Below the pieces are notes generated by a model. It did no database searches. It had not been told where the DNA came from and worked only from the letters and a program-made list of their open reading frames with translations. Source: Burkholderiales bacterium (GTDB lineage Bacteria; Pseudomonadota; Gammaproteobacteria; Burkholderiales; Burkholderiaceae_C). From it: a DNA stretch of 64,000 nucleotides. The stretch lies in assembly GCA_013044035.1 (NCBI GenBank), contig JABEVE010000004.1, forward strand, positions 7,588 to 71,587. Direction: 5' to 3'. The translations under genes were made by a program, and so were the position numbers. Numbering within the stretch: the stretch's first letter is position 1; the number at the start of each line of letters is the position of its first letter. Shown piece after piece: positions 7,642 to 44,216 of this stretch.

Positions 7642-8814
7642 ATGTCCCCCACCAACCTGCTTCAGTTCGACCGTGCCGGTCTGGTGGACTGGTTCGCCGC
7701 GCATGGGGAGAAACCCTTCCGTGCCCGCCAGGTGTTCCGTTGGATGCACCAGAGGGGCGTGGCCGATTTCGCCGACATGAGTGATCTGGCCAAGCCTCTG
7801 CGGGCCTGGTTGCGGGACGCAGCACGGCTCGAATCTCTGCCGGTGCTCGCCGAGCAGCGCTCGCGCGACGGCACAGTGAAGTGGCTGTTTGATGTAGGCG
7901 CAGGCGATGCCGTGGAAACCGTGTTCATTCCCGAGGCTCAGCGCAACACCCTGTGCGTGTCGTCGCAGGCCGGATGCGCCATGGCCTGCCGCTTTTGTTC
8001 CACGGGGGCGCAGGGCTTCAGTCGCAACCTGACCACGGCTGAAATCCTGGCGCAGCTCTGGCAGGCGGAGTTCAACATGCGGACATCCCTCGGACTTGCG
8101 GCCGGGGAGCGGGCCATCTCCAATGTGGTGATGATGGGCATGGGGGAGCCACTTCAGAATTACAGCGCCCTGGTTCCCGCGTTGCGATCCATGCTCGATG
8201 ATGACGGCTACGGCTTATCGCGTCGCCGCGTGACTGTGTCCACCTCGGGCGTGGTACCCATGATCGATCGTCTCGCGGCCGATTGTCCTGTCGCGCTCGC
8301 GGTTTCCCTGCATGCGCCGAACGATGCTTTGCGTGATGATCTGGTCCCGCTCAATCGCAAATACCCACTGGCCGAACTGCTGGACGCCTGCGAACGCTAT
8401 CTGGTGCATGCACCGCGTGACTTCATCACCTTCGAGTATTGCATGCTCGATGGTGTGAACGACGCTCCCGAACATGCTCGGCAACTGGTCCACTTGTTGC
8501 GCGATCGCATACCGTGCAAGTTCAACCTCATTCCCTTCAATCCATTTCCACAGTCTGGCCTCGCCAGATCGCCTGCCGGGCGCATGGCTGCATTCGCCCA
8601 GATCCTCCTGGACGCGGGCTTCGTTACCACAGTGCGCAAGACGCGTGGCGACGACATCGATGCCGCCTGCGGTCAACTGGCCGGCGATGTGCAAGACCGC
8701 ATTCGTCGCAAGCCGGGGCGTGCGGGCACGTCATCCGTGGTGCCGCCACAGACCATCATCCCCATTCGGGTGGAGACCGCTAGCCCGACCACCCACTTGT
8801 CCAACTTGGACTGA
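7642..8814 (+). CDS. rlmN: Dual-specificity RNA methyltransferase RlmN
   Basis: [20 protein letters not shown] radical-SAM motif, [16 protein letters not shown]. Confidence 0.96.
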
Positions 8815-8818
8815 CGCT

Positions 8819-9670
8819 ATGAGCAAGCAAACCCGCTGGACCGAAGGTGGTTGTTCCGCATGGCCATTGCTTTCCATCCTCATGCTGACTCTTGCCTTGT
8901 TGCAACTCGGTGGTTGCGCCGGCAATACGGCCCTAAGCAACGGTTCGGCGAACTCGACGCCCAGCACGGGCAGCGCCGAGGCCGACAAAAACGCGCAAAT
9001 CCGCCTGGAGTTGGCCGAAGGTTATTACCAGCGCGGTCAGGCCGAGGTCGCACTCTCCGAAGTGGCCAAAGCGCTGGATCAGGCTCCCGATTATGTGCCG
9101 GCCTACACCATGCAGGCGCTGATTCAAATGAGCCTGGGTCAGAATCCCCAGGCTGAACAGAGCTTCCGCAAAGCGCTGTCGATTGCGCCGAGCAATGCCG
9201 ATGCACTGCATAACTATGGCTGGTTCCTCTGCGCCAATCGGCGCTATCCGGAGTCGTTCGCCATGTTCCGGCGCGCCTTGGCGGTTCCCGGTTACCGCTA
9301 CCCGGAACGCACCGACCTGGCCTACGGCGTCTGCCAGTACCGGGATGGTGATCTTGCAGCGGCCGAGAAAACGCTGCGTGCTGGTTTTGCCCTCGATCCA
9401 GCCAATCCTGCGCTGTCCACCAACCTGGCATTGGTGCTGTACCGCCAGAGCAAATTCAAGGATGCGTTGTTCTATATCCAGCGCGTCAACTCGGGTCAGT
9501 ACGCCAGCGCTCAATCGCTCTGGGTGGGGATTCTCATCGCGCGACGCGCTGGCGATACGCTGGATACCAACACCTGGACCACGCAACTGGAGCAGCGCTT
9601 CCCGGACTCGCGCGAGGCCATTGCCGTCCAGCAGGGCAGATTTGACGACCCGAGCCTGCTTCCCCGCTGA
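8819..9670 (+). CDS. pilW: Type IV pilus biogenesis/stability TPR lipoprotein PilW (PilF)
   Basis: Lipobox LGGC, TPR repeats, LHNYGWFLC; conserved position after rlmN. Confidence 0.88.
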   Translation: MSKQTRWTEGGCSAWPLLSILMLTLALLQLGGCAGNTALSNGSANSTPSTGSAEADKNAQIRLELAEGYYQRGQAEVALSEVAKALDQAPDYVPAYTMQALIQMSLGQNPQAEQSFRKALSIAPSNADALHNYGWFLCANRRYPESFAMFRRALAVPGYRYPERTDLAYGVCQYRDGDLAAAEKTLRAGFALDPANPALSTNLALVLYRQSKFKDALFYIQRVNSGQYASAQSLWVGILIARRAGDTLDTNTWTTQLEQRFPDSREAIAVQQGRFDDPSLLPR

Positions 9671-23645: not shown

Positions 23646-23666
23646 TGGTGGGGAGGGGGACTCGAA
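23646..23666 (-). repeat. Distal att site: displaced copy of tRNA-Leu 3' end with 2-bp deletion
   Basis: TGGTG--GGGAGGGGGACTCGAA versus TGGTGCCGGGAGGGGGACTCGAA at 44130-44152. Confidence 0.9.
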
Positions 23667-34643: not shown

Positions 34644-34660
34644 TTCGCATGCAGCGGAAT
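34644..34660 (+). promoter_or_regulatory. Island motif TTCGC-N8-GAAT
   Basis: TTCGCATGCAGCGGAAT about 51 nt before ATG 34710. Confidence 0.6.
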
Positions 34661-34709
34661 GGTTTCGAGCGCCCGGAATCCCGAGCGCCATCCCCAAAGG
34701 ACCGAAGCC

Positions 34710-35258
34710 ATGCAAACCAAGCAGCACACCCTCATCATCATCGCCGTCGCCATGGCCCTTGCGCTGGGCACCGCCCATGCCCAGGGCATCAAGGGCATCA
34801 GCATGGACGCTCCCATGACCGCGCCAGTCCCCTCTGCCCCCGACCACGGGGCGTGGGCGCTCGACATCAGCACCACCAGCTATCACCTGCGCCAGTGGGC
34901 CAGGGACAGCCTCAATCAGGACAACCCAGGGCTGGGCGTTGAGTACCAGTACAGCCACAACTGGGGCGCGGCCGCGGGCTTCTACAAAAACAGTTACAGC
35001 CGCACCAGCGTCTACGCCACAGCCACCTACACCCCGCTGCACATCAGCCTGCCAGAAGGCTTCTCCATGGCCGCTGGCGGGCTTGCGGGCGCCATCAGCG
35101 GCTACACCAGCGCCGAAGCCCCCGACCGGCCCTTGATGGCCGCCGCGCTCCTGGAAATCCGTTCGCGGCAGGGGTATGGCATCAACCTGGTCGGCGTGCC
35201 CAACGCTGGGCAGTCGGCCGGCTTCATCGGCCTGCAACTGGTGGTGCCACTGACCTGA
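34710..35258 (+). CDS. Exported small beta-barrel outer membrane protein, PagP-like
   Basis: Signal peptide (AHA); SYH..NQDNPGLGVEY..GFYKNSYSRTS pattern reminiscent of PagP-like barrels; alternating C-terminal strand. Confidence 0.55.
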   Translation: MQTKQHTLIIIAVAMALALGTAHAQGIKGISMDAPMTAPVPSAPDHGAWALDISTTSYHLRQWARDSLNQDNPGLGVEYQYSHNWGAAAGFYKNSYSRTSVYATATYTPLHISLPEGFSMAAGGLAGAISGYTSAEAPDRPLMAAALLEIRSRQGYGINLVGVPNAGQSAGFIGLQLVVPLT

Positions 35259-35269
35259 GCGCCGCGCAT

Positions 35270-35286
35270 TTCGCATCCGCCCGAAT
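35270..35286 (+). promoter_or_regulatory. Island motif TTCGC-N8-GAAT
   Basis: TTCGCATCCGCCCGAAT just after the upstream stop codon, then hairpin GTGTGCCGGC..GCCGGCACAC, RBS and ATG 35337. Confidence 0.65.
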
Positions 35287-35336
35287 CCGTGTGCCGGCCC
35301 AGGCCGGCACACGCCAACACCCAAAAAGGAACCGTC

Positions 35337-36809
35337 ATGCAAACCAAACAACGCAGCTTCACCCTCGCCCCGCTGACCCTCGCCCTGGCGCTGGCCTTCG
35401 CGTCCCCGCTGGCCCATGCCGATACAGCCGGCGGCACGGTCTCCGGCTCTGGAAACGTGACCACCCAGGACAGCTCGGGCAACCTGGCGTCTGGCAACGG
35501 CGCCCTGGCTGCCGTCCAGAGCAACAACACCGCCATCGGTCAGCAAGCCCAAGCCAACGAAGGTGCCGCAACCGCCGTGGGCGCTGGCAGTCTGGCAAAC
35601 CAGAGCAGCACCGCGCTCGGCGCTGCGGCCACCGGCCAGGGCGTCGGCTCGGTCGCGGTCGGTGCGGGGGCGCAAGGGCTTCAAGGATCGTCAGTTGCGG
35701 TCGGCCAAAACGCAACCGCCAGCGTTGCCGGCGTCGCCATTGGTGCGGGCGCCAGCGTGCCCATCGCGCCAGGCGGCGCGGGGACTGCTGGTGTGGCGCT
35801 TGGCTATCAAGCCACGAGCACAGGGATTGACAGCGTTTCGCTCGGCGCTGGCAGCACGGACTTAGGCCTTGCAGGTGTTGTGAGCGTGGGCACCACATCC
35901 CAGCAGCGCCGCATCATCAACCTGGCCGCCGGTCAGGCGCCCACCGATGCGGTCAACTTGCAGCAGCTCGACGCCGCCGCTCAGGCCGCGCAGGTCTACA
36001 TCAACACCGCCACGGCCGGCGCAGTCACCACGGCGAACAGCTACACCAACCAGCAAATCACGGCCCTGCAAAACATCATCAACAGCGCCACGGCATCGGG
36101 CCTGTGCAAGTACAACCCCGCCGGAGGCATCGTGTGCGGCACCAACACCACCGCCGCCGCTGGTGCCGTCGCGCAGGGCAATGGTGCATCAGCCAACTAC
36201 GCCGGCAGCCTCGCCATCGGCCAGGGCGCAACCATCACCGCGCCCACTGGCAATGACGGCCTGACCACCGGAGCCATCGCCATCGGCAACGGTGCCCAGG
36301 CCAATGCCGACCCCGCAACGGCCATCGGCTTTCAAGCCGACGCGGCAGGAGCCAACTCGGTTGCTCTCGGCTACCAAGCCCAGGCCTACGGCACCAACAG
36401 CGTGGCGCTCGGCGCGGGCAGTGTCGCCAACCGCCCCAACAGCGTGAGCGTGGGCAGCGGCGCGCAGCAACGCCAAATCACCAACGTCGCCCCCGGCACG
36501 CAAGCGACCGATGCGGTGAACCTGGGCCAGTTGCAGCAAGCCACCGCTGGCCTGCTCGGCCAGGCCGACACCTACGCCGCCCAAGGCATCGCCATGGCCG
36601 CAGCCCTCGACATCGCGCCGCTGTACGGCCCGGATGGCTACAGCCTGAGCGCAGGCCTCGGCAGCTACGGCGGGCAGAACGCCGTGGGCATCGCGTTCTC
36701 GCGCCGCACGGCTTACTACCAGTACCCCGTGGCCTGGACCGTGGGCCTCGGCTTCAACGGCGGCAGCGGCGCGGCAGTGGGCAAGGTCGGGGCGAGCATC
36801 GGCTGGTGA
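35337..36809 (+). CDS. YadA-like trimeric autotransporter adhesin
   Basis: Signal peptide; Hep/Hag head repeats (xAIG/xALG); two neck motifs RRIINLAAG..TDAVNLQQL and RQITNVAPG..TDAVNLGQL; C-terminal anchor ending ASIGW. Confidence 0.9.
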   Translation: MQTKQRSFTLAPLTLALALAFASPLAHADTAGGTVSGSGNVTTQDSSGNLASGNGALAAVQSNNTAIGQQAQANEGAATAVGAGSLANQSSTALGAAATGQGVGSVAVGAGAQGLQGSSVAVGQNATASVAGVAIGAGASVPIAPGGAGTAGVALGYQATSTGIDSVSLGAGSTDLGLAGVVSVGTTSQQRRIINLAAGQAPTDAVNLQQLDAAAQAAQVYINTATAGAVTTANSYTNQQITALQNIINSATASGLCKYNPAGGIVCGTNTTAAAGAVAQGNGASANYAGSLAIGQGATITAPTGNDGLTTGAIAIGNGAQANADPATAIGFQADAAGANSVALGYQAQAYGTNSVALGAGSVANRPNSVSVGSGAQQRQITNVAPGTQATDAVNLGQLQQATAGLLGQADTYAAQGIAMAAALDIAPLYGPDGYSLSAGLGSYGGQNAVGIAFSRRTAYYQYPVAWTVGLGFNGGSGAAVGKVGASIGW

Positions 36810-37237
36810 GCCTAGACCATGCCCCGGCTGCGCCGGGGCATGCCTTCAGTGGGTTCGTGGCGGCGTGCATGGGGTCGGTGCCGCGTGTGTGCGGCGGCCT
36901 GCTGTGGGCCTTGCTGCTGTGGTCGGAGGTCTCCCTCACAACCAGGGTGATGCCTTCGGCCCGCGCTGCTGCGGCTTCGCCCCGAGCCCCGACGGGTCTC
37001 AGCCCTTCGGGGCTGCATCGCTATCACAAGGCATCGGCGTCAGCGCCGCCGACAACACCACTGCCACGGCCAAGGCAGTGCCCGGCTTTGCTCGGCACCC
37101 CAGGCGACGCCCGGCTACGCCCGGCTAAGGCTAGGCCCAGCCAGTGCCGCCCATGGCGGCAGGGATACGGCGCGGTGAGGCCGCGCCGCCAGGGCTCTGC
37201 ATCGCTGACTTGCGCGGGCCGGTTTGCCGTGGTCGAC

Positions 37238-37440
37238 CCCCTGTGTTGACAAGCCCGGCTGAAGCCGCCCGCGACTTTCTGCGCCTTTCTGGGATGGCGT
37301 CAGTCCCGCCAGCCCGCAAGCGGGCGCTGCGCGGCCTACGGCCTGTCATGCCTTCCGCAACCCCTCATCGCCTACGGCGACCGGCTTGAAAGATCGGCCA
37401 ATGAGGGCGGCTCCATCCGGGCAGAACATCAACACAGGGG
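37238..37440. other. Long stem-loop (about 33-bp imperfect stem, structured loop); ssi/Frpo-like candidate
   Basis: CCCCTGTGTTGA (37238-37249) pairs with TCAACACAGGGG (37429-37440); inner GCCCGGCTGAAGCCGCCC pairs with GGGCGGCTCCATCCGGGC with 2 mismatches. Confidence 0.6.
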
Positions 37441-37447
37441 ATCAATC

Positions 37448-37732
37448 GTGACCACAGCAAACCTCTACACCCCCGCGCAAGCCAGCCATTCCGAGCCCCT
37501 TCACGCCGAGGGGCTCACCACCCAGGCAGGTGGCAAGGCCAAACCAACCCAAAACCTGCCGTCTTTCGTCATCAATCAGGCCTTGGAATTCATGCAAAAG
37601 CAGGCCGCAGCCAAGGGCGTGAGCGTGAGCAAAACCGAGATTCTGTTCACCATCACCCAAGACCCGAAAGGCAACACAGCCAAGCGTTTTGAAGCGCTTT
37701 GCGACCTCGGCTTCAAGGTCGTTTTGAACTGA
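37448..37732 (+). CDS. Hypothetical protein
   Basis: 94 aa, GTG start just after the stem-loop. Confidence 0.55.
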   Translation: MTTANLYTPAQASHSEPLHAEGLTTQAGGKAKPTQNLPSFVINQALEFMQKQAAAKGVSVSKTEILFTITQDPKGNTAKRFEALCDLGFKVVLN

Positions 37733-37791
37733 TTTCAACCATCAACCAGGAGCACAACATGACCGCCACCAGCCCCGCCACCCTGGCCGAT

Positions 37792-37808
37792 TTCGCCTGG
37801 CGATGAAT
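37792..37808 (+). promoter_or_regulatory. Island motif TTCGC-N8-GAAT, degenerate copy
   Basis: TTCGCCTGGCGATGAAT about 59 nt before ATG 37866. Confidence 0.4.
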
Positions 37809-37865
37809 GGCAGTGAAGGCATCGGTCAGGCCCGCGTTGGCGAACTGACCCATTGAACTGAAAGG

Positions 37866-38174
37866 ATGACTGAAATGGCTAACTTGGAAAAGATGTCTGA
37901 GAACCTGCGGGCCGCACTTTCGCGGTCGGGGCAGGCCTCGATCGATCTGCACGCCTCGAATGATGACCGCGGCCTGAAGGATTTGATCATCGTTGAACGC
38001 GGTGGCGGCCAAATCGCGGGCGCGAGGCCGCTGGGCAACGTGCACATCGGAATCAATCGCGCGCCGACCACCAGGGCGCTCATCAGGGCGCAGCTGCGCG
38101 AATTGTTCGCGGCGCATGGCTTGACTGGCCGCGATTTTTTTGATGATGAGCCCATCATTTACGAATACGTCTGA
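37866..38174 (+). CDS. Hypothetical protein
   Basis: 102 aa with AAAGGA RBS. Confidence 0.6.
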   Translation: MTEMANLEKMSENLRAALSRSGQASIDLHASNDDRGLKDLIIVERGGGQIAGARPLGNVHIGINRAPTTRALIRAQLRELFAAHGLTGRDFFDDEPIIYEYV

Positions 38175-38230
38175 TCACGCAGCCCGGCCATCGCGCCGGG
38201 CATCACCAGCACCGCCGCCAGGAGCAAGCC

Positions 38231-38446
38231 ATGACCTACAAAACCATCACCCGCGCCCAATTTCTCGCCGAAGCTCGCGCGTGGGACATCAAGCGTCGCG
38301 CCATGCGCAGGGCCGCGTTTTTCGAGGCGATCTTCAACACATTCATGGCCGTCTTCAGCATCGTGTTCATCGCCTTGTCCTGCGTCGCCATCGCCGGCCC
38401 CGGCCTGCTGGCCCTGGCCGCCTTTTTCGGCATCGCCCCGACCTGA
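38231..38446 (+). CDS. 71-aa membrane protein
   Basis: AGGAG RBS; basic N-terminus and long hydrophobic C-terminal half. Confidence 0.65.
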   Translation: MTYKTITRAQFLAEARAWDIKRRAMRRAAFFEAIFNTFMAVFSIVFIALSCVAIAGPGLLALAAFFGIAPT

Positions 38447-38461
38447 TCGCGCCGCCCGCGT

Positions 38462-38478
38462 TTCGCATGCCGCTGAAT
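38462..38478 (+). promoter_or_regulatory. Island motif TTCGC-N8-GAAT
   Basis: TTCGCATGCCGCTGAAT, then hairpin, AAGGAG RBS and ATG 38530. Confidence 0.65.
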
Positions 38479-38529
38479 CACCATGCCGGCGCGTGCCGGC
38501 ACACCACACACCAACCAAGGAGCATCACC

Positions 38530-39042
38530 ATGCAACACACCAAAACCATCCTCACCCTCTCCAGCCTGGCCCTCGCCCTGGCCCTGGGCGGCTGCGCCGG
38601 CGTGCCTCCGGGCATGGGAGGTCAGTATCAGTCTTCGGCCTACAACTACAGCACCAGCCAGGCCCAACAGGTCCAGCAGGTGCAGCTGGGCACGGTGCTG
38701 GCCGTGCAGCAAGTCGTCATCCATGCCGGCCAAGGCGTGACCGGCGCTGGCGCGGGGCTCGGCGCCGTCGCAGGCGGCTTCGTGGGCAGCCGTGTCGGTA
38801 ACGGCAATGGGTCCACGGTCGGGGCCGTCATCGGCGCTCTTGCAGGCGCTGCTGGAGGCAACATGGTGGCGGGTAACGCTTACCAACAGCCCGGGTTGCA
38901 GATCACGGTGCGACTGGACAACGGCCAGACCATCGCCGTCACGCAAGCCTCCGATGTGCCCGTTCGAGCCGGGCAACGTGTCGAGCTCTTGGGTAGCCCC
39001 TACGGCTGGAACTCAACCGCCCGTGTCGTTCCCATCGGTTGA
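38530..39042 (+). CDS. Glycine-zipper 2TM outer membrane lipoprotein (SlyB/Pcp-like)
   Basis: Lipobox LGGC; GAGLGAVAGGFVGS..GAVIGALAGAAGG; C-terminal LQITVRLDNGQTIAVTQ..GQRV. Confidence 0.85.
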   Translation: MQHTKTILTLSSLALALALGGCAGVPPGMGGQYQSSAYNYSTSQAQQVQQVQLGTVLAVQQVVIHAGQGVTGAGAGLGAVAGGFVGSRVGNGNGSTVGAVIGALAGAAGGNMVAGNAYQQPGLQITVRLDNGQTIAVTQASDVPVRAGQRVELLGSPYGWNSTARVVPIG

Positions 39043-39057
39043 TCCCGACCCGCGCGT

Positions 39058-39074
39058 TTCGCATCCGCCTGAAT
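39058..39074 (+). promoter_or_regulatory. Island motif TTCGC-N8-GAAT
   Basis: TTCGCATCCGCCTGAAT just after upstream stop; AAGGAG RBS and ATG 39110. Confidence 0.65.
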
Positions 39075-39109
39075 ACCAGTGCCGGCGCAACCAACCAAGG
39101 AGCCTCACC

Positions 39110-39529
39110 ATGCAACCCATCCAAACCACCAAACCCGTCATCACCCTTGCCCTTACCCTGGCCCTGGCCGCCGCCTTCGGCGGCTTCTGGGTGGGCCGTA
39201 ACCAAGGCCAGGAACAGGCCAGGCAACAGGTATACGAGCTCGCCAAAGAAGCCAATCCACTGTGGCGGTTCGGTGGCCACCAAGCCCCGACTAAAGACTC
39301 TCAAACTCTGAAACTCAGGGTCGCGCAGGGGAATATTCGGGCGGCGCTCACCCTGTCAGATCGCTACCTGATTCAGGCCTCGAATACATCAGGAAAGGGC
39401 AGCCATGATGACCATGAGATCAAACTTTTACTTGAGGCTTTCCAAGCCCAGGACCAGGCCTACTCAATCCTGTATCAAAACATCCTCCGCCTGGCCTCCC
39501 CGGACCATAAGCCCTGGCCGATCTTCTGA
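39110..39529 (+). CDS. Hypothetical protein with N-terminal signal/anchor
   Basis: MQPIQTTKPVITLALTLALAAAFGGFWVG leader then helical soluble domain. Confidence 0.7.
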   Translation: MQPIQTTKPVITLALTLALAAAFGGFWVGRNQGQEQARQQVYELAKEANPLWRFGGHQAPTKDSQTLKLRVAQGNIRAALTLSDRYLIQASNTSGKGSHDDHEIKLLLEAFQAQDQAYSILYQNILRLASPDHKPWPIF

Positions 39530-40133: not shown

Positions 40134-40159
40134 AAAAAAAGCCGCCTTGCGGCGGCTTT
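40134..40159 (-). terminator. Terminator downstream of the pilin gene
   Basis: A7-GCCGCC-TTGC-GGCGGC-TTT; reads hairpin plus U7 on minus strand. Confidence 0.8.
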
Positions 40160-40176: not shown

Positions 40177-40710
40177 TTACTGGCAGCTCGTTGGCAGATA
40201 TTGTTGCGGAATTGTCGAAGTGGCATTCGCGCCTGTCGAAGCGGCGGTGGTGCAAGTCCATTTGGCGCCACCATTCGTCGTTTCCATAATCAAGGTTTTC
40301 CCAGCAATGGCGCTGCTGATGCCACTTGTACCGGCAGCGTTAAATGTCATTTTCAGATCAAGGCCGTAATCAGTCCCAGCTGCAGCGCCGGCGGGAAGTG
40401 TTCCAGCAAACGGAGTTGCAGCCATGGAGTTAACATAACGACCGCTTTGAGTCTGAACATCAACGCACGTTGTCGTTGTGCAAGTGGCACCTGCAACATT
40501 AAGTGTCAGATTTTGAAACCCACCATTTGTATTGAAATATTCCATGAGTGAGGTTTTTGCGCCATCGGATAAGCTCAGGCCCTCAGCAACCTGCGCTCTT
40601 GCGGTGTATTGCATGTATTGAGGAATGGCGATGGCCGCCAAAATGCCGATGATGGCCACCACGATCATCAATTCGATCAGGGTGAAGCCCTGTTGCAGTT
40701 GTTTCTTCAT
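40177..40710 (-). CDS. pilA: Type IVa major pilin (PilA-like), island-borne
   Basis: Class III signal [27 protein letters not shown]; [10 protein letters not shown]; C-terminal WTC...LPTSC disulfide loop; AGGAG RBS. Confidence 0.93.
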
Positions 40711-40830
40711 CAAAAACTCCTAGGTGAGTTGGTTGTGTGCTGCGGCTTCTGCGCCATGAAAAACACCGGTATAGACGCTTGGCTGCAGCAGGGTTGGCGT
40801 CAATCCCCCCTGAAGGGGCAGGTGAAGTCG

Positions 40831-40846
40831 AGCAAGCGCCGTGCCA
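40831..40846 (-). promoter_or_regulatory. Sigma-54 (-24/-12) promoter for the pilin
   Basis: Minus strand reads TGGCACGGCGCTTGCT, matching TGGCACG-N4-TTGCW. Confidence 0.85.
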
Positions 40847-40906
40847 TGTGCGAATGCGTGCAATAGTTCACAGAAGCTTGCTTTCGGGCTTTGCGTGATG
40901 GAGCCA

Positions 40907-40959
40907 TGTCGGGGCGATAAGCCGACACGGTTCCGTCATGTCGCATAAAAACAGCGACA
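40907..40959. promoter_or_regulatory. Two tandem TGTCG-N11-CGACA dyads; candidate bEBP (PilR-type) enhancer
   Basis: 40907-40927 and 40939-40959, further CGACA half-site at 40976; about 60-115 bp upstream of the -24 box. Confidence 0.65.
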
Positions 40960-41023
40960 TGACGCGGTACTCGCGCGACATGCTTGCCATCTATGATGAC
41001 TCTGTCGTGACCCTGAGGAGGAG

Positions 41024-41563
41024 ATGCTTATGATGAACAAGCCACCAACTGACCAACCATCTTCGTGCAGCATCCAGACGGCATCCATTCTGTTGGGGCG
41101 CAGCAAACGAACCTTGCAGCGCTGGTGTGAAGATGGGACGTTGCATGTTGTTGTGCAGTGTGGCCCGGGTAGGGCCCAACGCCAGCTCATCGACCTGACG
41201 CAGATTCTGGAGATGTTCGGGCCATGCCCAGAGCCGGACTTTACTGAGTTGGTCGTTGCAGCCGACGAAGGCGAGGCGGATGCCCAGAATGACTTGGGCA
41301 TGGTTTTGCTGCAAGAAGGCAAAGCGGAATCGGCTGTGGCGTTCTTTCAGGAATCGGCACGGCAGGAGTACCCGGAAGCGATGCACTGGCTATCCCAGTG
41401 CTACATGAAAGGGCTGGGAGTTGAGAGAGATGAAAACCTCGCGATGATGTGGCTCAACAAGGCTGCCGCACACGGGCATGTCATCGCCAAGGCGCAGGCT
41501 GACGCCATCCGCGCCATGGCCTTGCAGCAGTTACAGGCAAGCGGTCCACCGGCGCCTCAGTGA
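41024..41563 (+). CDS. N-terminal Xis/MerR-like HTH fused to Sel1 repeats
   Basis: IQTASILLGRSKRTLQRWCEDG; DAQNDLG, EAMHWLSQCYMKGLGVERDENLAMMWLNKAA. Confidence 0.8.
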   Translation: MLMMNKPPTDQPSSCSIQTASILLGRSKRTLQRWCEDGTLHVVVQCGPGRAQRQLIDLTQILEMFGPCPEPDFTELVVAADEGEADAQNDLGMVLLQEGKAESAVAFFQESARQEYPEAMHWLSQCYMKGLGVERDENLAMMWLNKAAAHGHVIAKAQADAIRAMALQQLQASGPPAPQ

Positions 41564-41566
41564 ACG

Positions 41567-41842
41567 ATGCCTGCGCCGAAGGATGTTCCACCGCTGCGCA
41601 AGCCAGGAAGGCCGCGCAAGGGCGAGGTTCGACTGGAAACCACCGATGCAGAGCGAGCCCGGCGCTATCAGATGCGTAAGCGTGCCGAGGCTAAACAGGA
41701 CGGACGTGTGGAAGTGCTGTTGTTCGTGCCCAGGCAGGCCGCGGACCGACTGACCGAACTCAGCATTCGCCGAGGTTGCACCAGGGCCGAAGTGGTGGAG
41801 AAACTTATCCTGCAGGCGGATGAGTTCAGCCGTGGAGAGTGA
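41567..41842 (+). CDS. Small DNA-binding protein (AT-hook-like GRPR plus RHH-like C-terminus)
   Basis: KPGRPRK, AERARRYQMRKR, DRLTELSIRRGCTRAEVVEKLI. Confidence 0.6.
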   Translation: MPAPKDVPPLRKPGRPRKGEVRLETTDAERARRYQMRKRAEAKQDGRVEVLLFVPRQAADRLTELSIRRGCTRAEVVEKLILQADEFSRGE

Positions 41843-41987
41843 CGCGCAATCATGGCCTCTTCAAAGTCAACGGCCCTATTCTGAGGCGTTTTTCACCTCA
41901 CGCACCTGCCGACAGCGGGCCCCTGGCACAAGAAATGCTTATCTCAAATTGTTTCACCGTTGTTGTACTTCTCATCTCCGGGACCTT

Positions 41988-42011
41988 AGCCCGCCTTGCG
42001 GCGGGCTTTTT
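41988..42011 (+). terminator. Rho-independent terminator
   Basis: AGCCCGCC-TTGC-GGCGGGCTTTTT. Confidence 0.75.
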
Positions 42012-42084
42012 CTTGGTGGGATGTTGAATCCCAAAAACCAGACGTTTTGCGCCAGATTGTCTAGTTTCCACGGTGCGGCGCACC

Positions 42085-42716: not shown

Positions 42717-43928
42717 TCACGCCCGCATCTTCACCACATCAGCCCCAGCCTTGAGCTTGTCCAGATAGTCCCCCCAGGCCTGCATCATCGCTGCCCGCTC
42801 TTCGAGGTAGCGGGTGCGGTTGTAGGCGCGGCCCAGTGGGTCGCGCACCGCGTGGGCGAGCTGCATTTCGATGACCTCGACCCGATAGCGCAGCTTCTCA
42901 TCCAGCAGGGTGCGCGCCGTGGCACGGAATCCGTGGCCGGTGACAACATCCCCGCCGAAACCCAGGGTTCGCAGCGCAGCAGTGACCGCGTTCTCACTCA
43001 TGCATCGCTCTCGCGTGCGCGGCGACGGAAACACGAAGCGACTACCACGCGTGAAGGGGTGAAGGTCCTGCAAAATCTTCCTGGCCTGCAAGGGCAGGGG
43101 CACGATGTGAGGCTCGCGCATCTTCATCTTTTCGCCAGGGATGCGCCACTCGTTACGGTCGAAGTCAATCTCTGACCACTCGGCCTGTCGCAGCTCACCA
43201 GGCCGCACAAAGAGCAGCGCTTGCAGATGGAGCGCCGCCCGGACCACTGGCCCGCCGGTGTAGCCATCGAACGCCCGCAGCATCTTGCCCAGCTCAGCAG
43301 GGTCCAGCACGGCGGCGCGATGCTGCTCCACAAGCGGCTTGAGCGCCCCGCGAAGGGCAGGGGTAGGATCAACATCAGCGCGGCCCGTGGCGACCGCATA
43401 GCGCATCACCTGGCCGATGATCTGATGCACGCGCCTGGCCGTTTCGCCCAGGCCACGCGCCTCGATGCGCTGGAGCACGTTGAGCACGTCAGGTGCGCGC
43501 AAGCCGCGCACGGACTTTTGGCCGATGATGGGGAATGCGTTGGCTTCAAGGCGCTTGATGAGGTTGCCGGCGGTGTTACTGGACAGGGTAGGGGCGCGCC
43601 TGGCGTGCCATTCCCTGGCGATGGCCTCGAAGGAATCGGAGACCACGCCCGCCGCCTTGGCCTTGCGCATGGCCGAGGGGTCGATGCCATCGAGCAACTG
43701 CTCGCGAATCTCCGCAGCGCGATCACGAGCACGCTTGAGGGACACAGCAGGATAGACCCCGAGTGACAAGGTGCGGTCCTTGCCGTGGAAGCGGTAGTCC
43801 ATGCGCCACCACATTGCGCCGTCAGGCCGCACGATGATGAAAAGGCCAGCGCCATCGCTCAAGCGATAGGGCTTTTCTCCAGGCGCTGCGCGCTTGAGCG
43901 CCGTGTCCGTCAACAGGTTGTTTGCCAT
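42717..43928 (-). CDS. int: P4-type (IntA-like) tyrosine integrase
   Basis: Arm-binding KPYRLSDGAGLF..LSLGVYPAVSL; catalytic VRPGEL, HGFR, LAH, AYNR; next to tRNA. Confidence 0.95.
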   Translation of the reverse strand: MANNLLTDTALKRAAPGEKPYRLSDGAGLFIIVRPDGAMWWRMDYRFHGKDRTLSLGVYPAVSLKRARDRAAEIREQLLDGIDPSAMRKAKAAGVVSDSFEAIAREWHARRAPTLSSNTAGNLIKRLEANAFPIIGQKSVRGLRAPDVLNVLQRIEARGLGETARRVHQIIGQVMRYAVATGRADVDPTPALRGALKPLVEQHRAAVLDPAELGKMLRAFDGYTGGPVVRAALHLQALLFVRPGELRQAEWSEIDFDRNEWRIPGEKMKMREPHIVPLPLQARKILQDLHPFTRGSRFVFPSPRTRERCMSENAVTAALRTLGFGGDVVTGHGFRATARTLLDEKLRYRVEVIEMQLAHAVRDPLGRAYNRTRYLEERAAMMQAWGDYLDKLKAGADVVKMRA

Positions 43929-44129: not shown

Positions 44130-44216
44130 TGGTGCCGGGAGGGGGACTCGAACCCCCACGCTTTTAAGGGCGGCGGATTTTGAGTCCGCTGCGTCTACCG
44201 ATTCCGCCATCCCGGC
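44130..44216 (-). tRNA. tRNA-Leu (CAA), 87 nt with encoded CCA
   Basis: GCCGGGA/TCCCGGC acceptor stem, anticodon loop CTCAAAA, long variable arm, GGTTCGAGTCC T-loop. Confidence 0.97.

Follow-up and report, generated by a model that had tools for sequence, protein, structure and literature searches.

Type IV pili are phage receptors and mediate adhesion, twitching, and DNA uptake, and their major pilin is usually regarded as the product of a chromosomal gene under the control of PilS-PilR and RpoN. In Pseudomonas aeruginosa, pilin alleles with accessory genes are exchanged horizontally beside a tRNA gene, at the resident locus. Other mobile elements, exemplified by those of the R64 thin pilus and PAPI-1, have type IVb pilins together with complete assembly machinery of their own. 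The sigma-54 holoenzyme needs an AAA+ enhancer-binding protein for promoter opening. RRNPP regulators such as PlcR join an XRE helix-turn-helix to a TPR sensor domain and have palindromic target boxes. The hallmark of the region upstream of P. aeruginosa pilA is the presence of TGT-N11-AGA and GTCT elements (PMC6058289). Here we examine a type IVa prepilin gene in a 64-kb stretch of a 3.7-Mb Thiomonas genome (GenBank assembly GCA_013044035.1, contig JABEVE010000004.1, positions 7,588 to 71,587). This stretch is referred to as the window, and its coordinates are used throughout. The pilin gene lies on a 20.5-kb mobilizable island in a tRNA-Leu gene, and it is transcribed away from a gene for a protein, here called HTH-Sel1, in which a predicted winged helix is fused to Sel1 repeats.

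The preferred reading, to which we assign a probability of about 0.6, is that the island carries a portable pilin expression cassette as accessory cargo and that this cassette has its own probable regulator. The cassette comprises a monocistronic type IVa pilin gene with its terminator, a sigma-54 promoter, three dyads as its proposed operators, and the divergent HTH-Sel1 gene, joined in mobile copies by a RepB-like gene. It recurs on plasmids and at the chromosomal pilA genes of three bacterial groups. The host genome (G000) was compared with those of 60 relatives, among them G004, G011, G014, G017, and G022; other loci and contigs that were examined are designated by L-numbers.

The island pilin gene and its sigma-54 promoter

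The prepilin gene occupies positions 40177 to 40713 on the minus strand. Its open reading frame (ORF), listed from a TTG codon at 40713, is intact and matches the Pfam families Pilin (PF00114; 57.3 bits over residues 38 to 178) and N_methyl (38.8 bits) as well as TIGR02532 (38.9 bits), which bears out the first-pass annotation of the gene as encoding a full PilA-like pilin. The true start is likely the ATG at 40710 rather than the TTG. Translation from this ATG gives a 177-amino-acid prepilin in which an 8-residue leader, MKKQLQQG, precedes FTLIE; the short leader with its final Gly, followed by Phe at +1 and Glu at +5, has the form of a prepilin peptidase site and N-methylation motif. The protein also has the character of a pilin domain, with four Cys residues that include a C-terminal disulfide loop (W-T-C...T-S-C-Q near the C terminus). 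A ribosome-binding site (AGGAG, 40717 to 40721, minus strand) is located 6 nt 5' of the ATG and is kept in the related loci L032, L126, and L166. Beyond the stop codon, a terminator scan detected an intrinsic terminator, GCCGCAAGGCGGC followed by T7 (40134 to 40153, minus strand). Because this hairpin and T-run lie 24 nt past the stop, the pilin gene is considered to be monocistronic.

As the earlier proposal of an alternative pilin presupposed, this is not the only pilA of the host. Contig C40 carries two further PilA-like genes and contig C66 one, all three with a sigma-54-like box. Comparison with these genes gave 37 to 43% identity overall and about one third in the globular part, and in the leader and first 30 residues there were no differences between the island pilin and the resident PilA (C40b, on contig C40). 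The closest homolog of the island pilin, and the only close one, is 77% identical. Because its leader and first 30 residues match those of the resident PilA, it is plausible that the host PilD and assembly machinery should accept the island pilin. That machinery is present. The host carries PilB/PilT/PilU-type ATPases, and the pilW gene placed at 8819 by the first-pass annotation was found within the window ORF at 8474 to 9670 (TIGR02521, 181 bits). There is one RpoN and there are seven Sigma54_activat proteins, which include a PilR beside PilS; the PilS-PilR pair adjoins ffh. The island pilin could co-assemble with the resident pilin or replace it, and pilus-phage receptors might change as a result, as the first-pass annotation proposed. 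Sensing of the island pilin by PilS is likewise plausible (cf. PMC6058289).

The resident locus on contig C40 (12.8 kb) consists of two pilin genes that flank PIN-domain toxin genes, near a large O-antigen-ligase-like gene. This gene content resembles the order pilin, ligase, pilin, VapBC on a plasmid contig of relative G014 (G014:C2). The resident C40 pilin locus may, judging from this resemblance, itself be of mobile origin.

The description of the island pilin gene as AT-rich was correct, in that its coding sequence has 50.7% GC versus 62.8% for the island and 64.4% for the genome. Low GC was rejected as a mark of foreign origin, because the GC content of resident pilA is lower still (46.8%). 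AT-richness is therefore a trait of pilA in this host and not a mark of the island.

The predicted promoter is a sigma-54 -24/-12 element, TGGCACGGCGCTTGCT (40831 to 40846, minus strand), with GG at -24 and GC at -12 at fixed spacing. It agrees exactly with the consensus TGGCAC-N5-TTGCW, as had been claimed; the window contains no other exact match, and the 3.7-Mb genome has 14 in all. RpoN and enhancer-binding ATPases are present in the host. A 19-nt core of the box is identical in L032, and the box is kept in G014:C2, L126, L166, and every homologous cassette. Transcription is predicted to start at about 40820, giving a 5' untranslated region (UTR) of about 110 nt.

Upstream of this promoter are three dyads. 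The two that had already been recognized, A (40907 to 40927; centered at about -97) and B (40939 to 40959; about -129, 32 bp from A), are both perfect TGTCG-N11-CGACA repeats. We found a third, C (40960 to 40980; about -150, 21 bp from B), which has one mismatch (TGACG-N11-CGACA) and is perfect in the plasmid version, L166. The centers fall within the expected 80 to 150 bp upstream and are helically phased, with 32- to 34-bp spacing in relatives. The three dyads lie within 74 bp, whereas 2.35 matches with at most one mismatch would be expected in all 64 kb; perfect dyads number only 18 in the 3.7-Mb genome. L126 and L166 share the half-sites of dyads A and B but have variable spacers. When the window is set against plasmid L166, the two differ at 1 of 30 half-site positions and at 15 of 33 spacer positions (Fisher P = 1e-4); on this comparison the half-sites are under constraint. 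The window, L032, and the plasmid contig L166 have identical spacing between the sigma-54 box and the nearest dyad.

A palindrome, TGTGAACTATTGCACG (40857 to 40872; centered at about -45), immediately precedes the -24 element and by its sequence may be a CRP/Vfr-type site. Similar TGTGA-N6-TCAC(G) elements are found in the promoters of resident pilA in G000, G011, and G022 (group A) and in other cassettes. The 5' UTR (40714 to 40820) contains stretches, such as CCCCTTCAGGGG and CAACACCGGTG, that are common to the island cassette, plasmids, and resident pilA. All Rfam matches within the UTR were far below gathering scores, and no unusually stable UTR fold was found (z-score of 0.1 versus shuffled sequence).

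HTH-Sel1, PilR, and the dyads

The divergent HTH-Sel1 gene (41024 to 41563, plus strand) encodes a protein of 179 amino acids, in which a predicted winged helix of the excisionase/MerR-like kind occupies the N terminus ahead of the Sel1 repeats. Its predicted recognition segment is GRSKRTLQRW. The Sel1 assignment is strong (Pfam Sel1, 50.1 bits against a cut-off of 30.7): Sel1 proteins in the PDB match at E = 3e-36 with the family profile, and the Sel1 fold matches too. The AF2 model (pLDDT 88.7) has a beta-alpha-alpha-beta-beta winged helix and then Sel1 helices. Residues ~14 to 57 of the model superpose on the Xis of mycobacteriophage Pukovnik (4j2n) with a TM-score of 0.74, normalized to the 54-residue target. 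This modeled resemblance supports a winged-helix fold rather than membership in the HTH_17 family. No convincing sigma-70 promoter was found for this gene.

Relatives of HTH-Sel1 were sought with its N-terminal 80 residues in a word-indexed search, which returned 5 close proteins, and the wider family was collected by pattern scans of genome and metagenome collections. The gene is the conserved divergent neighbor of pilA in 14 Thiomonas genomes. It is also located beside pilA in one Gallionellaceae genome, in two Acidithiobacillus genomes, and in most of the 40 metagenome loci examined, with the order gene, dyads, sigma-54 box, pilA in about 30 of them. In the source annotations the relatives appear as 'TPR repeat protein' or 'hypothetical protein', and full-text literature searches for a Sel1/HTH regulator of pilA or for Thiomonas island pilins turned up nothing relevant.

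The dyads accompany this gene. Loci with HTH-Sel1 had a sigma-54 box every time, and two or three dyads or half-site arrays, spaced 21 to 34 bp apart, were present in nearly every locus, the exceptions being L137 and L151. Resident pilA promoters without an HTH-Sel1 gene (those of the host, G004, G014, G011, and G022) have no dyads and carry AATTGTC direct repeats instead. At one locus an insertion sequence (IS) element takes the place of the pilin, and two perfect TGTCG-N11-CGACA dyads remain beside the HTH-Sel1 gene.

The dyads also co-vary with HTH-Sel1. Half-sites and helix residues were compared at 34 loci. Half-sites were mostly TGTCG in 19 of 20 loci with Q after RT[V/L/W] in the recognition helix and mostly TGTCC in 14 of 14 loci with R at the same helix position, an agreement of 33/34. 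In a maximum-likelihood tree of HTH-Sel1, Q is the older state and R arises in one well-supported clade, inside which L131 (Q, TGTCG) and L089 (R, six TGTCC) form a sister pair (support, 100/99). There are thus at least two independent Q/R changes on the tree, and the half-site base follows both.

The first-pass annotation had seen in the -24/-12 box and dyads the layout of RpoN/PilR-controlled pilA genes. The first half of this claim stands, with the sigma-54 promoter kept in all homologous cassettes. The dyads as a host PilR enhancer are another matter, since resident pilA is without them. One alternative to the preferred reading is nevertheless that the host PilR uses the dyads as its upstream activating sites, that three PilR dimers bound there form the promoter-opening hexamer, and that HTH-Sel1 does something else. 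The geometry suits this alternative: the number of dyads, their position between -97 and -150, and their spacing of about 32 bp here and 21 to 34 bp across loci are what an NtrC-type enhancer and an enhancer-binding-protein hexamer would call for. The common TGTC core resembles elements near P. aeruginosa PilR sites (PMC6058289), so that PilR may bind there as well, and the sequence separating the dyads from the promoter shows no further candidate PilR site.

The distribution of PilR sequences does not fit as well. In Thiomonas, PilR (G000 C25:167196-168740; loci L043 to L070) occurs in two types whose C-terminal DNA-binding segments, FNRTAAAQLLGLNLRQIRYRMERL and LDRDAAARRLGLDPRQLQWRLQRL, are markedly unlike. 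The LDRDAAARRLGLDPRQLQWRLQRL type (group B) coincides with the Thiomonas genomes that have HTH-Sel1, and dyad-bearing promoters, at chromosomal pilA, which is a further point for PilR. Yet G000 and G014, which have identical PilR recognition segments and DNA-binding domains, have cassettes of different dyad classes. Thiomonas G017 and Acidithiobacillus have very different PilR helices and the same TGTCG-N11-CGACA dyad, so that this dyad is found with three PilR recognition helices. The Gallionellaceae PilR resembles that of the host, but its pilA has TGTCC sites. No PilR residue splits the dyad classes, whereas the Q/R residue of HTH-Sel1 does. In addition, the dyads are unlike the host's resident pilA promoter and its orthologs in G004, G014, and G011, PilR-group relatives whose resident promoters lack such sites, and they stay beside the HTH-Sel1 gene where the pilin has been lost. 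An assignment of TGTCC to the group B PilR and of TGTCG to the host PilR was also considered; it was rejected because G014, with a host-type PilR, has a TGTCC cassette, and the Gallionellaceae and Acidithiobacillus PilR domains rule it out as well.

Because the half-sites follow the Q/R residue of HTH-Sel1 rather than PilR, and because the dyads outlast a lost pilin, HTH-Sel1 is favored over PilR, roughly 3 to 1, as the protein that probably reads the TGTC(G/C) half-sites. Several observations besides those already credited to PilR weigh against this conclusion. The covariation involves one residue, one base position, and two independent switches. Locus L151 has a Q-type helix, yet there is no TGTC half-site in the scanned stretch. 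The HTH_17 score of HTH-Sel1, 19.4 bits, is below the family cut-off of 27. On balance, control of the dyads by PilR seems unlikely. The preferred reading, that the cassette probably brings its own sequence-specific regulator, draws on the fact that the dyads accompany and co-vary with HTH-Sel1 and not with PilR.

Another possibility is suggested by the gene that follows. A RepB-RCR_reg-like ribbon-helix-helix gene (41567 to 41842, plus strand; Pfam, 21.6 bits with a cut-off of 21) begins 4 nt past the HTH-Sel1 gene. It was found only in mobile cassettes, on plasmids or islands, and is 80 to 91% identical in L032 and G014:C2. The dyads could be a mere auto-operator of a plasmid-derived maintenance or copy-control module formed by HTH-Sel1 and the RepB-like protein, with the pilin promoter driven by the host from solution or from cryptic sites. 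The dyads lie 44 to 117 bp upstream of the HTH-Sel1 start with the RepB-like gene next, the pair adjoins ParE/ParA/TrfA on plasmid contigs, and the retention of dyads with the HTH-Sel1 gene in the absence of the pilin fits an auto-operator too. This explanation is nonetheless improbable, given that three bacterial groups and about 30 metagenome loci have HTH-Sel1 next to chromosomal pilA but no RepB-like gene, and that the distance between the nearest dyad and the sigma-54 box is constant in the window, L032, and L166.

If HTH-Sel1 is the cassette's regulator, as in the preferred reading, it would bind the dyads upstream of the sigma-54 promoter, as the covariation suggests, and would likely also control its own gene and the RepB-like operon. 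HTH-Sel1 has no ATPase domain, and so the host must supply both RpoN and an AAA+ activator, for which PilR is the obvious candidate. From the usual enhancer position, HTH-Sel1 might help to recruit this activator or might block it until a signal arrives, and the Sel1 repeats would likely provide the surface for binding a partner, either protein or peptide. A gating or co-activating role seems the most likely, because most Thiomonas retain HTH-Sel1 at their main chromosomal pilA.

A more ambitious version of this mechanism can be offered tentatively, and we rate it as possible rather than probable. HTH-Sel1 might be a new kind of sigma-54 upstream factor, a small adaptor at the enhancer position that tethers or gates an ATPase such as PilR through its Sel1 repeats. 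The cassette could then be expressed in hosts in which the DNA specificity of PilR differs, and plasmids and islands could in this way install new pilus subunits, sometimes with minor pilins, on the machinery of the host.

The island and its relatives

The island (23646 to 44152) was delimited by a direct repeat, its gene families, and an empty site. Its integration target is a tRNA-Leu(CAA) gene (44130 to 44216, minus strand), and a tyrosine integrase gene with Arm-DNA-bind_3, Phage_int_M, and Phage_integrase domains lies beside it (42717 to 43928, minus strand). The 3' end of the tRNA gene, TGGTGCCGGGAGGGGGACTCGAA, serves as attR (44130 to 44152) and recurs with a 2-bp deletion as attL (23646 to 23666), the att core being TGGTG(CC)GGGAGGGGGACTCGAA. 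A search for an exact copy of the tRNA 3' end was negative; short-word BLAST gave a 16-bp core with a 2-bp indel between the copies. In the closest relative, G004, whose flank is 97% identical, the site is empty, and a phosphoribosyltransferase gene directly abuts the tRNA gene.

The island encodes a primase-like protein, a TraD-like coupling protein, a MobC relaxase-family protein, an outer-membrane barrel, a YadA-type adhesin, and a Gly-zipper lipoprotein, followed by the pilin cassette, a DUF2442/DUF4160 pair, and the integrase. The MobC_subf match (213.9 bits, cut-off 200) marks the element as mobilizable; the matches of the TraD-like coupling protein are weak. No VirB-type mating-pore set was seen among the island ORFs. 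Pilus assembly genes are also lacking among them, in agreement with the first-pass annotation, and its idea of a transferable extra pilin fits a major-type pilin gene on a tRNA-integrated mobilizable island with an att repeat and an empty site in G004. The cargo at 34659 to 39529 consists mostly of surface proteins: the outer-membrane barrel, the YadA-type trimeric adhesin, the Gly-zipper lipoprotein, and small exported proteins. By gene content the island is adhesion-oriented, if the pilin is counted with this surface cargo.

Among the 60 relatives, related MobC islands were found in G014 only. The closer of its islands has a homologous backbone (coupling protein, 82% identity; YadA, 88%; Gly-zipper protein, 82%; MobC, 64%), in which the homolog of orf39110 runs directly into a different integrase, and the pilin, HTH-Sel1, and RepB-like genes are absent. 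The pilin cassette is therefore accessory cargo, because the homologous island keeps its backbone without these three genes. A second, more distant MobC-type island in G014 (C1:3788772-3789317; L124 8772-9317, minus strand) has a different pilin-like gene, of 181 amino acids, flanked by outer-membrane-barrel and Gly-zipper genes; a sigma-54 box is lacking, and AATTTCCGCCGATGCCTATTGATGCACGG precedes the gene.

That an island can manage without the cassette raises the question of whether the pilin here is silent, hitch-hiking cargo, a recent and mismatched acquisition without a phenotype. The existence of a single close pilin homolog and the mismatch in dyad C relative to the plasmid version would be in keeping with such a history. 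Against it, the ORF, ribosome-binding site, promoter, terminator, and regulator gene are all intact, the half-sites are constrained, and the N-terminal 30 residues match the host pilin, and we consider silent cargo very improbable.

In G014 the cassette itself is located on the 26-kb contig G014:C2, which also has ParA, a MobA/VirD2-type relaxase, and a Tn3 transposase; its neighbors there are an O-antigen-ligase-type gene, a second pilin gene, and a VapBC pair. A 79%-identical HTH-Sel1 protein is encoded on metagenome contigs of 12 to 26 kb (L166 to L169) with ParA, TrfA, MobA_MobL, and ParE/ParD. These contigs have one pilin gene, two, or two plus a minor-pilin set. Positions 1748 to 9692 of L166/L169 encode two major-type pilins, a minor-pilin set (two N_methyl proteins and a PilW, PF16074), and a 991-amino-acid protein. 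Judged from its genes, this set would be a plasmid-borne kit of pilus tip and subunits without ATPases or a secretin.

Homologous cassettes do carry differing pilin alleles, a diversity that the first-pass annotation had suggested looking for. L126, a 69-kb metagenome contig, is 92.5% identical to window positions 40622 to 42043, and its pilin body is wholly different. Homology ends at 40622, after pilin codon 31, both in this comparison and in that with G014:C2. Because the breakpoint is common to both, the alignments show that the regulatory half is conserved and that pilin bodies have been swapped behind it, by recombination in the conserved N-terminal coding segment.

Comparison with described systems

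The usual picture of pilA as a chromosomal gene is widened by a major pilin that travels in a self-contained unit among chromosomes, plasmids, and an island, and whose body can be exchanged while the regulatory half is conserved. The cassette also draws attention to an unannotated family of probable regulators, which is tied to pilA not only in Thiomonas but also in Gallionellaceae, Acidithiobacillus, and many uncultured relatives. The correspondence of Q and R in its recognition helix to G and C in the half-site would be a simple specificity rule that is directly testable. If HTH-Sel1 cooperates with an enhancer-binding protein, the known modes of sigma-54 promoter control would be extended.

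The fold predicted for HTH-Sel1 residues ~14 to 57 is that of excisionase/AlpA/MerR winged-helix proteins (HTH_17; Xis 4j2n). Unlike excisionases, HTH-Sel1 is fused to Sel1 repeats, is located at pilA far from att sites in most genomes, and is a predicted dyad binder. It is like the RRNPP regulators in that a small DNA-binding domain is joined to helical repeats able to bind a peptide or protein signal, an analogy of principle and not of family. In contrast to them, it has an excisionase/MerR-like winged helix and Sel1 rather than TPR repeats, it belongs to Proteobacteria, its target is a sigma-54 promoter, and no gene for a signaling peptide was seen.

Like R64 and PAPI-1, the elements described here have pilin genes on mobile DNA. 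The cassette differs from both in having a type IVa major pilin only, for which the machinery of the host is needed, and some of its plasmid relatives add minor pilins. The parallels with pilin exchange in P. aeruginosa are closer: pilin bodies are replaced behind a conserved N-terminal segment, there is a link to a tRNA gene, and an O-antigen-ligase-type pilin glycosylase accompanies some copies (G014:C2). However, the pilin here is an extra copy, carried with a dedicated regulator on an integrase-bearing island or on plasmids.

As with the RpoN- and PilS-PilR-controlled pilA of P. aeruginosa, the island gene has a -24/-12 promoter and upstream TGTC elements, in a host with RpoN and an adjacent PilS-PilR pair. 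It differs from P. aeruginosa pilA in its three long dyads, which have another geometry and co-vary with a linked HTH-Sel1 gene, and in its place on a mobile cassette. Thus, in promoter type and host regulators this is the classical RpoN/PilSR arrangement; what differs is the private regulator and the mobility.

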